From the NCBI RefSeq assembly GCF_056712565.1, contig NZ_CM160072.1: 64,000 nt of DNA. One strand, given 5' to 3'. Position numbers: made by a program. Shown here piece by piece: positions 54,301 through 60,300 of this stretch; the first letter of the stretch is position 1, and each line of letters opens with the position of its first letter.

Positions 54301-57300
54301 TGATTTATGGCGATGTGATTGTCGATGCCCAACCGCTGGATTTGCTGGTGAATAGCAGTTATTTCGCGATTAACTGAGGGAGCGTTTGCCCCATTGCCTG
54401 ATGCGACGCTAACGCGTCTTATCATGCCTACAAATCGCTCATTCCCCAGGCCGGATAAGGCGCTCGCACCGCATCCGGCGACCAACGTCATGCTTCGTCT
54501 GGTTGCCAGCCTTCCGTATACCAGATATGCAACAACGCATAAGAACGCCAAGGTTTCCAGCGCTCGGCATAACGGCGGATTTGTGCCGGTGTCATTCCCG
54601 GAAATCGCTGTTTAATCAGATAATCATCCGGCAGAAAAACATCTTTCGCCTGCCAGCCGCGCAAGGCGAAATAATTCGCCGTCCAGCGCCCGATCCCCGG
54701 AAAAGTTTGCAGTTTTTTCATCGCTTGTTCTACGTCGCCCGGTATTGTCATTGGTAAGGTGCCCTCCAGCGCCGCATTTGCCAGATGAATCAGTGCCTCT
54801 GCCCGTTTCAACGGCATACCTAACGCTTTTAATGCCTGCGGGTCGGCTGCAGCCAGCCGCTGAGGCGTGGGGAAGCAGACATAATCCGGAAAATCATCCA
54901 GCCGTTCGCCATAAAGCTGTGCCACTCTGGCGGTCAATTTTGCCGCCATCGCCACGCTCACCAGTTGGCCTAAAATCGCCCGCACGCCCTGCTCAAAAGC
55001 ATCAACACTGCCGGGTAAACGCAATCCGGGCCGCGCCGCGCCTAACTTGCCCAACGCACCGTTAACAATCTGCGGGTTACATTGCAGATCAAACAGGCAG
55101 CTCATTTTCGCCAGACACTCAGCGGCAACAGGTTCTAAACCTGCACTTAAATTTATGTGCAGAGTATGGCGGGCTATATCCGGAATAGCAGTCACCACGC
55201 CGCGATATTCGCCTACCGCCAGACTACAGGCATAATAACTGTCCGCGCCCGTTTCCACGCTGCTCACCGCACGGGCGGCGAGAAATCCCAACATCCACGA
55301 CCAGTCATACGGCGGCTGCCAGTTCAGGGTATACATCGCATCTCCTTGTTAATCCGCTTTCAGCATAAACGTTATTCAGACGCTGCGCTTTGCTTTCATA
55401 TTCCGGTTGTCGCGACGGCAACATTTCGCTAAAGTCACGCCCCTTCTTCACCGGCATGGGGATTATTTCGTGTTTATTGGTTTTGATTACGGTACAGCAA
55501 ACTGTTCAGTGGCGGTCATGCGCGACGGTAAACCGCATTTGCTAAAAATGGAAAACGACAGCACGCTGCTGCCTTCAATGCTTTGCGCGCCAACGCGTGA
55601 AGCGGTAAGCGAATGGCTGTACCGCCATCATGACGTTCCGGCAGACGACGATGAAACGCAGGCGCTGCTGCGTCGGGCGATTCGTTATAACCGCGAAGAA
55701 GATATCGATGTTACGGCGAAAAGCGTGCAGTTCGGTCTTTCCTCACTGGCACAGTACATTGATGATCCAGAAGAGGTGTGGTTTGTGAAATCACCAAAAT
55801 CGTTCCTCGGTGCCAGCGGCTTAAAACCGCAGCAGGTAGCGCTGTTTGAGGATCTGGTCTGCGCAATGATGTTGCACATTCGCCAGCAGGCGCAGGCTCA
55901 ACTGCCGGAGGCAATTACTCAGGCAGTGATTGGTCGCCCGATCAACTTCCAGGGGCTGGGCAGCGATGAAGCAAACACCCAGGCGCAAGGGATTCTGGAA
56001 CGCGCGGCGAAGCGTGCCGGGTTTAAGGATGTGGTATTCCAGTACGAGCCGGTCGCGGCTGGGCTGGATTACGAAGCCACCTTGCAGGAAGAAAAACGGG
56101 TGCTGGTGGTGGATATCGGCGGTGGTACGACTGACTGTTCTTTACTGCTAATGGGGCCACAGTGGCGTTCGCGCCTCGATCGTGAAGCCAGCCTGCTGGG
56201 TCACAGTGGTTGCCGTATTGGCGGTAACGATCTGGATATCGCACTGGCGTTTAAAAACCTGATGCCGTTACTGGGCATGGGTGGCGAAACCGAAAAAGGC
56301 ATCGCGCTGCCGATTCTGCCGTGGTGGAATGCGGTTGCCATCAACGACGTCCCTGCGCAAAGTGATTTCTACAGTAGTGCCAATGGTCGTCTGCTTAACG
56401 ATCTGGTACGCGATGCCCGCGAACCGGAAAAAGTGGCCCTGTTACAGAAAGTCTGGCGTCAGCGTTTAAGCTATCGCCTGGTACGTAGCGCAGAAGAGAG
56501 CAAAATTGCGCTTTCAAGCGTAGCGGAAACCCGCGCCTCACTGCCGTTTATCAGCGATGAACTGGCTACGCTGATTAGCCAGCAAGGGCTGGAAAGCGCC
56601 CTCAACCAGCCACTGGCGCGAATTCTGGAACAGGTGCAACTGGCGCTGGATAACGCCCAGGAAAAACCGGATGTCATCTATCTGACTGGTGGTAGCGCCC
56701 GATCGCCGCTGATTAAAAAAGCGCTGGCAGAACAGTTGCCGGGCATTCCGATTGCAGGCGGCGATGACTTTGGCTCCGTCACCGCCGGGCTGGCACGCTG
56801 GGCGGAAGTGGTGTTTCGTTAATTGAAAAATGGCTCAGCAGCGGCTTAAATCAGCCTTCGCCTGAGCCAGTTTTTCTGCCGCCTGACGTAGCGGCTCCAT
56901 CAACGGCATGGTCCGTGCTGGAGCATGAAGGCGGAATCGCTGCAACTCTGTCGCACCGACAGTCAACGCCGATTCCAGCCGATGTCGTTTGGCGGTCATT
57001 TTCGCCATTACCGCTTGTCTGTCTGCTGGCGTTACCGCTTCATTCGGCCTGAACACAAAACGGCGTTCGCAACTCGCTTTCCAGTCGATAACCGCCTGGG
57101 TCAGATGATCACCAAAACCTTTTACTTGCTTAACGCTCCGTCGGGTAACGTCTGCCGCCGTTTCAATACCAAAGGACCGTAACGCCGCTTTACGCGCAGG
57201 GCCAACGCCGGGAATAGAGGCAACATCAATAAAAAATCCCTCCAGAAACTTCTGCTTCTGCCGTTCCCTTGCGGTGTCCTGAAGTGCTGCCAGATCGCGC

Positions 57301-60300
57301 TTTTCTTCTTCCGGTAACCCAAGAATTTCGTCCTTCATTTTTTCGAGCCTCGCCCGTTTGGCGATAAAACCTTCCAGCCCGCCCAACTGCTGGATCTGGC
57401 TGACTAAATGGTCATAGTCCATTTTCGCGCGATTAAACGCCTCACGGCGTTGCTGGATTTCTGCTTTGTACGCTTTGCTTGTCAGGCTGCCAATAATCCA
57501 GATAGCCGCCAGCACAGGAATCAAAATAATATAACTCGGTTCTGCCTGAAGGCCGCAAAACAACAGCGATAACGCTGACAGTGCGATCTCAATCAGAATG
57601 ATGTATTCGCGCCGTAACAGGCCTAAAGGAAGCGACCTGCCAGTCGGTTGGAAATGATCGGGTAATGGCAATTGCAATGCTGGCGGTGCTACTGATGCCA
57701 TCACCATCGCCCAGACTCTCGCCAGCACAAAATCACCGCCGGTGGTAATGACCTCTTCACCGAGATCAATAAAATAGATAACGCCTTGATTATCCAGCGC
57801 ACACCACGGGCAGTCAGTCAAATGAGCGGGGTAAACATGCATTGCCGAAACGGTACATTTCTTTAACTGTTGGCGTAGTAAATCAAGTGCCGCTACCCAC
57901 GCTTTTGCCGTCGGACGCCCGGTTGCCACGCCACTTTCCGTGAATGCCTGCTGAAACATGGCTTCAACATCGCCCGGTAACATCGACAGCGGAATCGATC
58001 GTGGCGGCGGTTTTAAACCACGTCGCTGATTATCTGAGGCGTAGGCATAACGGAAATGGGCAATATCCGTCTCCAGCGCATTACCTGCATCAGAGATAAG
58101 CGGTACACCGGAATAAGGATGCCGCCCACCAAACAAGATGTGAAATATCAGCAACGCAAGGCCAAAATTATCGTGATTTTCTGTGCGTTCAAAGCCGACA
58201 AATGATGGCATGGTTTGCAGCTCTGGCGGCGTAAAATGCGACACGCCGACTTCGCATAAATGCAGTGTACCATTGGCATTAATCTGAAAGGAGTCGCTAT
58301 CAATCAACACCACTTTGCTGTCGCGACCTACCATAAAGCTGTTCTGGTTTACGTCACCCACGACGTGCCCGTGCTCATGAACAGTAGCAAAAGATGAAGC
58401 AATATTGCGCGCAACATAGAGTAGAAAATCCCACGCACAATGAGGGTAACTCTGGCGACGATGTGCCGGGCTATAGATCATATGAATCGGTTCTTTACCA
58501 GAAACTTTTGGCATCATAAAACCGATAACTTTTCCGCCTCGTCCACCGTGAAGCGTTGCCTGCGGCCAGGCGACATAATTCAACAACTGCGCGTCAGCTG
58601 TCGCAGCCATAAAGGCAAGTTTGTCCTGTTTTAAGGCGGGTGGCGGCGTGTGATAAATCTTGGCGACGCTATCGACAAACTCCTCGATATCATAAACCGC
58701 ACCTTCGCCGCCTTTGCCCAGTTCACGGCCAGGCGTAACGCACTCACCAGTAGCAGTATATAAAGTGGGTTTCATGGTAACCACAGCGCCAGTGCCAACG
58801 TTTTATCATCATCCGTACGCTCGTTTACCGCCGGGCTGGACAAAAACTGCTTTAACAATTCAGGTAATAAATCGAGTTGTTCCTGCGTTGCTGACGCCAG
58901 TCCATTGAAAAACGGGGTAAAGAAAGGCACATGCGGAGAATTATCCAGCATATTTAACGCCAGTCGCTGAATACCATCCGTAAATGCTGCAACTTTGTGC
59001 GCACGCTCAGTGCTGGTGAAAGTTTCCAGTCTGGAAACGGCATCTTCATCGGTAATGAAGTGCGTCATATTGGTATATTCACCCACCATCGGCGTGAGCG
59101 GCAGTTGCAAACCGTGCCCCAAATCTACCACCACGCCGCCATCGCCAATCTGCATAATCAAGGTGCCATTAGCTGATGAAATCAATCCCAAAAACGTGCA
59201 GGCAAAATCGCGAACCGCTAATTCTTTGGCTTCCGCCTCGGCAAAAAGTCGCTGACGAATGGTCAGCACAATGTCCGTTGCGAGGACATCATTAAGCCCC
59301 AATTCCCCGCCCTGCATTTTTTGCGACATATAAGCCATCGCTTCATTGACGGCGAGCATCGCACCTTCGCCACCCTGCGAGACGCTGCCTGCGCCATCAG
59401 CGACAAATACCGACAATAATGGCTGCTGGTCATTTAGCCAGGCAACCTGCATCTGGCAGGCATCCTGGCAAGGCAAATCAGCGCTAATATGCGACGTTCC
59501 AACGGCTGATGCATAGACCAGTCGCCAGCTCACACTGACGTCCAGCCTTTTGGCGCTTCCAGCACAACTTCCGTTCCCGGCGTGGAGCGGGAAACCGAAC
59601 GCAGCGAACTGGATAACCAGCTAAACAGTTCACGGAATTGTAATCCCTGCAGAGACAAAGGCTGACGGACGCTGATTTGGGCCAGCGTCTTCATATCCGC
59701 CCCCTGAACACCGATGGTAAAGAAGGCAAACTTCTTATCTTCTTCCCCCTGAAACACTTTGTTGGCGGCAGCCTGCCACTCATCGGTTGGTGCGCCATCG
59801 GTGATCAGGAAAATCCACGGACGATAATAGGAAATACCATTGGCACGATATTCACGTTTCCGCTCCTCAACCATATCCAGGGCTTTGGTAATGGCAGCGC
59901 CCATTGGTGTATCGCCCTGGGCAAACAGGATGGGCGGGAAAAAATTAGCGGCGCTGGTAAAGGGTTGTTCCACATGCACCGGGCCGAACGTCACAATGCC
60001 GAGTTCCACTCTTTTTAAGGCCAGCGAATCGGCAAGCAGCTCATCGCGAAAGGTAACCAATCCGGTGTTAAGTTCATTAATGGGTCTGCCGCTCATCGAG
60101 CCAGAAACATCCAGCAGCAAAATGCAGGGGCAACGTGGTTCCGGGTTACTGGCAAAATCGCTGGTGGCAAACGTGATTTGTTCGCTCATAAGAAATCCTT
60201 TCTTAGAGAATTATTGAGGTCCGGTATCATACCGATTGCAATAATGAAATAAGAGCAAACGAAGAAACTTTCAGAATTAGGCCCGGCGGCGCAGAAAATT

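Follow-up and report, generated by a model that had tools for sequence, protein, structure and literature searches.

The yegL-pphC-yegI operon of Escherichia coli as a probable chromosomal member of the mobile TerY-P-type vWA, PP2C and kinase cassettes

Background

Gene triads that combine a vWA domain protein, a PP2C-type phosphatase and a Ser/Thr kinase have been described in bacteria as the TerY-P systems, for which the summaries of Anantharaman et al. 2012 given in two later papers (PMC11090510, PMC4978471) require a TerY-like vWA protein together with a PP2C phosphatase and a Ser/Thr kinase that carries a fused zinc ribbon. In the ter island of an IncHI plasmid, an example of the classical version, the gene order is vWA, TerD, vWA, TerY-C vWA, PP2C and kinase. 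A stand-alone module of vWA protein, phosphatase and kinase constitutes the anti-phage TerY-P system (Gao et al. 2020), of which a Pseudomonas aeruginosa variant has also been reported (Costa et al. 2024). TerY-P systems protect against T7-like phages (PMC7699616), and the P. aeruginosa version provides defence against Autographiviridae, with survival of most infected cells (PMC10889362). Here we analyze three genes of Escherichia coli, yegL, pphC (formerly yegK) and yegI, which encode such a triad (collectively YegLKI) in a stretch of 64,000 nucleotides of NCBI RefSeq assembly GCF_056712565.1 (contig NZ_CM160072.1), referred to below as the window.

A second point of comparison is offered by PknB/PstP, PrkC/PrpC and Stk1/Stp1, which, like YegI and PphC, are adjacent, co-transcribed kinases and PP2C phosphatases in which the phosphatase reverses the autophosphorylation of the kinase. 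PphC is an active Mn-dependent PP2C phosphatase that dephosphorylates YegI (10.1101/303594), and YegI autophosphorylates at Ser153, Ser160 and Ser162, which lie in and near its DSD(S) loop, in a reaction needing Mn2+ or Mg2+ (Rajagopalan & Dworkin, 10.1101/303594, also J Bacteriol 2018, and 10.1101/819920, also FEBS Lett 2020). In the same two studies the operon and its four-nucleotide ATGA overlap were described in strains REL606 and O157:H7, and a synteny figure spanning yegD to yegL is available elsewhere (PMC13232886). The operon, the ATGA overlap of pphC and yegI, the yegJ polymorphism and both enzyme activities are already published, and their observation in the window is correct and not new.

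A preliminary description of the window had singled out these genes as one tightly coupled vWA, PP2C and membrane-kinase unit with a poorly defined physiological role, and had suggested a link to YegD, the Hsp70-like product of the convergent neighboring gene. The coupled unit is borne out by our analysis, whereas the link to YegD finds no support in the comparative data. We consider it probable that yegL-pphC-yegI is the chromosomal, near-universal E. coli copy of a widespread, horizontally mobile TerY-P-type cassette that operates as a switch.

Results and discussion

The operon in the window and in other Escherichia coli

The sequence of the window matches the B2-type strain E. coli ATCC 11775 at 100% identity, and the RefSeq annotation of that chromosome places yegI, pphC and yegL at matching coordinates. 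All three genes lie on the minus strand: yegL (59530..60189) encodes a cytoplasmic, stand-alone vWA protein of the TerY type with 219 residues; pphC (58772..59533), which has a GTG start, a PP2C-type Ser/Thr phosphatase of 253 residues; and yegI (56835..58775) an inner-membrane Ser/Thr kinase of 646 residues, counted from its ATG. They are chained by two 4-nt overlaps on this strand, for which the bases were read directly. At 58772..58775 the TGA stop of pphC and the ATG start of yegI form the ATGA published for REL606 and O157, as had been initially described; the overlap at 59530..59533, which had also been given as ATGA, reads GTGA, and joins the TGA stop of yegL to the GTG start of pphC.

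Among 5426 complete E. coli genomes, 5420 gave a match to the operon region. In the yegD / ibs-sib / mdtA locus the window is 95-97% identical to other E. coli, as expected of orthologous genes. The REL606 and O157:H7 operons have the same genes in the same order, the ATGA overlap of pphC and yegI, no yegJ, a 646-residue YegI with VGD and DSD motifs, and a two-pass topology. The layout of the O157:H7 locus is identical to that of the window, from which it is distinguished only by allelic differences (93-96% nucleotide identity across the three genes).

Relationship to the TerY-P triads

Each of the three proteins is related to its counterpart in the ter-island triad. In BLASTP comparisons YegL is 31% identical to one ter-island TerY protein over 181 residues (E 7e-26) and 28% identical to another ter-island vWA protein (E 2e-20); these alignments run from end to end, with R-x-P, DxSxS, GT, TDG and C-terminal F-W-S-S motifs in common. 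PphC matches the ter-island PP2C at E 2e-5, and YegI the ter kinase at E 7e-5, in an alignment that extends from the C-lobe RPTA..W motif into the CPYC ribbon. YegLKI also displays the defining organization of the TerY-P systems, namely a vWA protein with a metal ion-dependent adhesion site (MIDAS), a PP2C gene directly downstream, an adjacent kinase gene and a mobile conserved neighborhood. The kinase zinc ribbon, too, has a counterpart at the sequence level, given the invariant Cys and His residues of YegI and the alignment of the ribbon region, with zinc binding being putative.

The ter-island triad and YegLKI accordingly share the order vWA, PP2C, kinase, overlapping gene junctions and a zinc ribbon or its counterpart after the kinase. 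However, the ter island has three TerY paralogs together with TerD, a PP2C of 577 residues and a soluble kinase of 499 residues, whereas YegLKI comprises a single vWA protein and a PP2C of 253 residues, with no ter genes nearby. YegI further differs from the ter kinase in having a membrane hairpin, a probable coiled coil and a putative helix-hairpin-helix (HhH) tail, and in its CHCC zinc element in place of the four-Cys ribbon. YegLKI resembles the anti-phage TerY-P systems in being a stand-alone module, but in the Gao-type system the kinase is fused to an OB fold, where YegI has instead the membrane hairpin and the HhH tail.

A further connection to the Ter systems is provided by the recurrence of DUF4236 proteins, which adjoin the cassette in six unrelated loci; the same family is found in the plasmid ter island beside terW and the TerY genes. 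Positions of DUF4236 genes, given by locus number, are L022 5578-6750, L029 3331-4473, L062 5937-6209, L011 2962-4182 and L070 4838-6046, with further examples in L039 and L053. Because of the pairwise homology of all three proteins, the common gene order and the DUF4236 neighbor, we have filed YegLKI, on sequence grounds, as a putative distinct subfamily of the TerY-P triads.

Classification as TerY-P by the PADLOC models failed. For YegI the only matches were to MkoA and PD-T4-6, which are generic kinase models. Since bona fide TerY proteins of ter islands likewise escape the PADLOC TerY model, we apply this failure only to the narrow Gao-type family and have not taken it as an exclusion.

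The relationship to the ter islands raises the alternative that YegLKI is a sensor of metal or tellurite-type chemical stress, in which the YegL MIDAS site would report metal status and the kinase and phosphatase would relay it. The presence of homologs of all three proteins in the ter island, with the gene order unchanged, the conserved MIDAS residues and the shared DUF4236 neighbor speak for it, as does the metal-sensing switch proposed by Anantharaman et al. 2012, to the extent that the CoCoNuT paper summarizes it. Nevertheless, there is no terZABCDE, TerD or TerW near the cassette in E. coli or the other inspected loci, the similarity to the ter proteins is distant (22-31% identity), and the membrane hairpin and putative HhH tail specific to YegI point to DNA and not to metal. 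We regard this explanation as improbable.

Phyletic spread and mobility of the cassette

We fetched 73 related loci, 58 of which had all three genes called on one strand, including two fragmentary or disrupted ones (L030 and L032). Of the other 56, 54 have the order vWA, PP2C, kinase. Over all 58 loci, the vWA and PP2C genes overlap by 4 nt in 40, and the junction between PP2C and kinase falls within the range of -35 to +29 nt in 57; in a further locus, L065, the three genes are rearranged over both strands. The recurrence of order and overlaps among these relatives indicates that the arrangement is not a product of chance.

A scan of species-representative genomes recovered 56 loci from about ten phyla, encompassing Gamma-, Beta- and Alphaproteobacteria, Acidobacteria, Planctomycetes, Cyanobacteria, Actinobacteria, Verrucomicrobia, Myxococcota, Chloroflexi (as kinase-only fragments) and Lentisphaerae. 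Klebsiella, Serratia, Chromobacterium, Piscinibacter and many metagenomes have full-length YegI homologs with 56-62% identity, and an exhaustive search of the kinase family returned 3226 clusters (50% identity) at E<=1e-30, mostly of about 645 residues. Across the loci YegL is better conserved (50-85% identity) than PphC (29-65%) and YegI (31-62%). The cassette is also carried by true plasmids, among them pQBR103 with its related Pseudomonas megaplasmids, and replicons of Agrobacterium, Rhizobium, Cupriavidus, Ralstonia and Deinococcus.

The convergent yegD gene (55470..56822, plus strand; NCBIfam PRK11678, E 7e-244) is separated from the yegI stop codon, which starts at 56835, by a spacer of 12 nt (56823..56834), as had been noted at the outset. 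Adjacency of yegD to the triad is confined to the Escherichia loci, with none of roughly 50 non-Escherichia loci having it. We have therefore rejected yegD as a partner of the cassette and treat it as a local neighbor outside the conserved unit.

These data also bear on the possibility that YegLKI is an endogenous housekeeping module, whereby YegI and PphC would adjust physiology through the reversible phosphorylation of proteins of E. coli itself, such as in stationary phase or under envelope stress, with YegL as an adaptor and YegD as a partner or substrate. Its near-universal presence in E. coli genomes and the purifying selection described below are compatible with such a role, as are the weak stationary-phase expression of yegI in REL606 (10.1101/819920), the induction of yegD by yegJ overexpression in K-12 (PMC13232886) and the closeness of the convergent yegD. 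On the other hand, the restriction of the yegD adjacency to Escherichia removes the partner from the conserved unit, and the patchy distribution, the presence on plasmids, the integrase and Tn7-like neighbors and the variable contexts would be atypical for a housekeeping regulator. Among the Enterobacteriaceae the species representatives recovered were limited to Escherichia species and Klebsiella spallanzanii, and no substrate is known. Taken together, we find a housekeeping function unlikely, albeit less so than metal sensing.

Some lineages display elaborations of the cassette. In the Planctomycetales locus L055 two tandem YegI-like kinases (4290-6983 and 7048-10152) follow the vWA and PP2C genes, and planctomycete kinases are about 800-980 residues long, with a long insert between the kinase and HhH regions. 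A basic protein of 69-70 residues (MKFGMRKPSLKK...GWGWLTNPK...) with no Pfam or PADLOC match directly adjoins the cassette in Betaproteobacteria, Acidobacteria and Planctomycetes (L003 5719-5928, L011 6700-6912, L054 11225-11410, L063 2289-2483 and L068 8095-8289). It is 73-83% identical between phyla, is lacking in E. coli, and may represent a fourth component of the cassette. A homolog of staphylococcal nuclease (SNase), likewise lacking in E. coli, is encoded immediately upstream of the vWA gene in several lineages (L003 5932-6474, L011 6917-7501 and 11709-12224, L019 and L026); it could be an effector, and its match to C3a212 (SNc+LTD), a PADLOC candidate, has an E-value of 1e-9.

Architecture of YegI and catalytic motifs of the triad

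PknB-type kinases have a single transmembrane helix, sensor domains outside the cell (PASTA or others) and the canonical HRD and DFG motifs, and lack a vWA partner. YegI, in contrast, has no extracytoplasmic domain and no match to a Pfam kinase model at E<=0.01, its only Pfam match being to HHH_5, below threshold; a profile of the YegI family matches kinases of the PDB only at E of about 1e-3. Nevertheless, in the AlphaFold2 model of the protein (pLDDT 88.6) residues 1-302 (57870..58775, minus strand, as for all segments of YegI below) adopt a kinase fold, for which Foldseek retrieved PknB, PknA, BRAF and Aurora with probability 1.0 and target TM-scores of 0.60-0.73. The hallmarks of the Hanks kinases, that is a bilobal fold, a Gly-rich loop, the VAIK lysine and the catalytic Asp, are present, whereas the canonical HRD and DFG motifs are not: the catalytic loop reads VGD(141)VNQNS, and the metal-binding motif position is occupied by D159-S-D161-S162. 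YegI is thus an atypical Hanks kinase, with VGDxxQxS for HRDxxPxN and DSD for DFG, and it is active despite these deviations, with seven of the ten canonical residues kept (10.1101/819920). In an alignment of 49 homologs G22, G23, E24, K39, D141, D159, D161, S162, T182, E185 and D202 are invariant.

Immediately after the kinase domain, residues 304-330 (57786..57866) form a Cys/His element that is modeled as a β-hairpin and a helix. C307, H313, C322, W324 and C325 are invariant among the same 49 homologs, and its alignment partner in the ter-island kinase is the CPYC zinc-ribbon region; it is a putative zinc element and the apparent counterpart of the TerY-P kinase zinc ribbon. It is followed by a transmembrane hairpin (residues 389-440; 57456..57611), seen as two hydrophobic helices in the model, in agreement with the reported location of YegI in the inner membrane with two passes and, from PhoA-LacZ fusions, both termini in the cytoplasm (10.1101/819920). 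Long helices, probably coiled coils, come next in the model, ahead of the HhH region.

Residues 515-571 (57063..57233) constitute an (HhH)2-like domain that was recognized through the Pfam HHH_5 model and through a model of the corresponding fragment. HHH_5 matches the whole protein at E 2.8e-4 and the fragment at E 1.8e-5, with scores of 21.7-25.6 bits that lie below the gathering threshold of 27, and it matches 11 of 28 YegI homologs, also below threshold. The two hairpins of the tail, PGVGP and KGFG, are conserved. The fragment model (residues 498-585, pLDDT 87) has its best PDB matches in the RNA polymerase alpha-subunit C-terminal domain, the N-terminal domains of Rad51, Dmc1 and RadA, the thumbs of Y-family polymerases, ComEA and DisA, with weak Foldseek statistics (E 0.2-2, probability up to 0.98). 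Interpretation of this segment as a putative non-specific DNA-binding HhH module is reasonable but not proven. The protein ends in a long helix (residues 583-645; 56841..57029), modeled as a single helix, which is likely to be a coiled-coil or oligomerization element.

YegL matches the Pfam VWA model (PF00092) at E 2e-10; an alignment of 50 homologs shows conservation of 98% or more at D27, S29, S31 and T94, together with a highly conserved TDG motif at 129-131, so that its MIDAS metal-binding motif is, judging from these residues, intact. PphC matches PP2C_2 (PF13672) at E 1.7e-51. Among 48 homologs of PphC, conservation reaches 98% or more in both the ADGAG motif around D46 and the GDG motif at 130-132, and it is also high for the C-terminal DD pair. 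A careful alignment had been called for to check the catalytic residues, and that of about 50 homologs of each protein shows both the metal motifs of PphC and the kinase residues of YegI to be retained.

The yegJ polymorphism, selection and decay

The preliminary description pointed to an additional small gene, yegJ, in K-12 that would be absent from the window. The alignment to K-12 confirms the difference: in K-12 the orthologs occupy the corresponding chromosomal position, flanked by yegD and the ibs/sib repeats, in the arrangement yegI-yegJ-pphC-yegL, with yegJ (153 residues, DUF2314) lying between yegI and pphC on the opposite strand. By junction alignment about 52 nt of the window (58729..58780) correspond to about 785 nt in K-12, and this AT-rich segment (37.7% GC), which carries the divergently transcribed yegJ, substitutes for the pphC/yegI junction with the first 16 codons of yegI and the last 2 codons of pphC. 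The coupling of pphC to yegI, retained in the window, is consequently lost in K-12.

The yegJ gene has been described as specific to K strains (Rajagopalan & Dworkin, 10.1101/303594, 10.1101/819920), and its product was found to bind RNase E (PMC13232886). We found the yegJ segment in 1934 of the 5426 complete E. coli genomes (about 35%), and the uninterrupted, overlapping form in E. whittamii, other Escherichia species and K. spallanzanii. The uninterrupted form is in the majority and, since other Escherichia also lack the segment, probably ancestral; the operon of the window probably preserves this ancestral arrangement. The K-12 segment (L002 6333-7117) furnishes YegI with another N-terminus, MKTNIKVFTSTGELTTLGRELG, which is nearer to the family consensus xLFTSKGxxVxLGRELG than is MKPTLYTATGECVTPGRELG of the window. 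This difference suggests that yegJ arrived through recombination with a divergent allele of the triad and not by simple insertion.

Comparison of four strains yielded ratios of nonsynonymous to synonymous substitution rates (dN/dS) well below one throughout: 0.11-0.17 for pphC, with 91-95% amino acid identity between strains; 0.11-0.18 for yegI (95-97%); 0.04-0.10 for yegL (97-99.5%); and 0.02-0.09 for the flanking yegD and mdtA (98-99%). By these ratios all three genes of the operon evolve under purifying selection in E. coli. The amino acid divergence of pphC and yegI had brought diversifying selection to mind, which we rejected in view of the values of 0.11-0.18. The synonymous divergence (dS) of pphC is raised to 0.17-0.26, making it the most divergent gene of the neighborhood (against L002, L072 and L073), and we attribute its divergence to older or recombined alleles and not to positive selection. 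The PphC of E. coli E69 (L033) has an identity of only 83%.

Individual genomes show degraded or altered versions. In E. coli EC21Z-063 yegI is a pseudogene with an internal stop (L073 4435-6375), and in two Escherichia sp. genomes (L015 and L016) it is truncated or frameshifted, which points to occasional loss of the kinase. An E. coli protein of 602 residues (P0035) is 95% identical to YegI and also has a PP2C_2 domain, suggesting a fused PphC-YegI frame in some strain, presumably produced by a frameshift at the ATGA overlap.

One could envisage from these cases that the operon is a silent relic, a once-mobile cassette that was fixed in the Escherichia ancestor and is now functionless and slowly decaying in E. 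coli. The lack of reported transcription and of an outstanding promoter-like site, the splitting of the operon by the yegJ segment in about a third of the genomes, the damaged yegI genes and the unusual divergence of pphC between strains would all fit. Yet the dN/dS range of 0.04-0.18 implies continuing purifying selection on all three genes, the three frames and both overlaps are intact in the window, the catalytic residues are conserved, and the cloned proteins, which derive from REL606, are enzymatically active (10.1101/303594, 10.1101/819920). This makes a relic the least probable of the explanations considered here, and a very improbable one.

Genomic context and a possible role in conflict

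Outside Escherichia the flanks of the cassette are mixed in content and often carry genes of conflict systems and mobile elements. These include NYN, SLFN-type helicase, MazG-like, ScoMcrA-like, BrxR/WYL and JetB genes in Piscinibacter; AbiH, KAP NTPase and Tn7-like genes in Chromobacterium; GmrSD, SymE and type I restriction-modification genes in Klebsiella; and integrase, IS66 and Rhs genes in Serratia. A type I HsdM gene occurs within 6 kb of the cassette in four phyla. For a broader view the four nearest open reading frames (ORFs) of at least 120 residues were scanned with PADLOC at 38 loci (145 ORFs, E<=1e-8); this gave 210 model matches, a count of families and not of proteins, against 0 in a small control from a different genome, the 46 other ORFs of the window. 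The matches include PifA, QatA, MADS, WYL, JetA, type I and II methyltransferases, PDC-S19 and PDC-S20. An enrichment of defense genes near the cassette is, from such counts, suggestive but not demonstrated.

The mechanism that we propose for the TerY-P-type switch runs as follows. Coupled translation would supply the three proteins in fixed proportion, with the phosphatase keeping the kinase off. A trigger would tip the balance towards autophosphorylation of the kinase and the phosphorylation of further targets; it might be sensed through the membrane-tethered, putatively DNA-binding tail of YegI, through the YegL MIDAS site, or through both, and the MIDAS site may bind an acidic or phosphorylated peptide. 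By analogy with the anti-phage TerY-P systems, and in view of the neighborhoods just described, our best guess for the role of YegLKI is a conflict or stress system with foreign or damaged DNA as its stimulus, as in phage infection; this is the most likely of the roles considered, though we hold it tentatively and at somewhat less than even odds.

Several observations weigh against the reading of YegLKI as a TerY-P-type cassette with a role in defense. 1) The PADLOC TerY-P models do not recognize it: the TerY model reaches E 0.0089 over a partial region of YegL, and PphC has no match. 2) The HhH assignment depends on Pfam scores below threshold and the high Foldseek E-values given above. 3) The family is essentially absent from known phages, in which we obtained three weak partial matches. 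4) The metagenomic locus L009 has housekeeping neighbors only, and several homologous cassettes lie among housekeeping genes; the size and foreign origin of the PADLOC control and its counting by family likewise temper the enrichment. 5) E. coli B, which has the intact operon, is a classical host of the T phages, implying that any defense by YegLKI is not constitutive against T phages. 6) Our literature searches found no report of a phage-defense or other phenotype for yegL-pphC-yegI, and the DefensePredictor paper does not mention the three genes. 7) A promoter and terminator scan found nothing exceeding chance, and thus no promoter-like site upstream of yegL, which fits the reported lack of expression under laboratory conditions (10.1101/819920, 10.1101/303594, PMC13232886).

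Neighboring features

Between yegL and mdtA the window contains two tandem sib/ibs type I toxin-antitoxin units (60334-60950), which form a 289-nt direct repeat with a spacing of 328 nt and 88% identity. The SIB RNAs are at 60336-60478 and 60664-60806, with the Ibs toxin genes on the opposite strand; an Rfam scan found only these two RNAs, which lie upstream of the operon. There are three copies at this site in O157:H7 and EC21Z-063, and the copy number varies with the strain. Positions 1-50000 of the window are a long run of minus-strand genes, from which the 46 control ORFs of the PADLOC scan were taken.

Conclusions

The yegL-pphC-yegI operon is chiefly of value as a pointer to a conserved kinase, phosphatase and vWA cassette, under purifying selection, that almost every E. 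coli genome carries. The mobile family of this cassette is very large, with about 3200 clusters at 50% identity for the kinase alone, and validated anti-phage TerY-P systems are among its relatives. That yegD falls outside the conserved unit sharpens the experiments that may be undertaken, and the right background for these is provided by strains with an uninterrupted operon and not by K-12. A bolder proposal, which we put forward as possible though rather doubtful, is that nearly every E. coli genome carries a working immune or foreign-DNA-sensing system that has been missed by the defense-finding tools. In such a system the HhH tail of YegI would detect DNA at the inner membrane, such as that of an incoming phage or plasmid. 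A phosphorylated or acidic partner would be captured by YegL through its MIDAS site, and PphC would then serve to reset the switch. If this is true, the splitting of the K-12 operon by yegJ, together with its silence in the laboratory, would explain why no phenotype has been seen.

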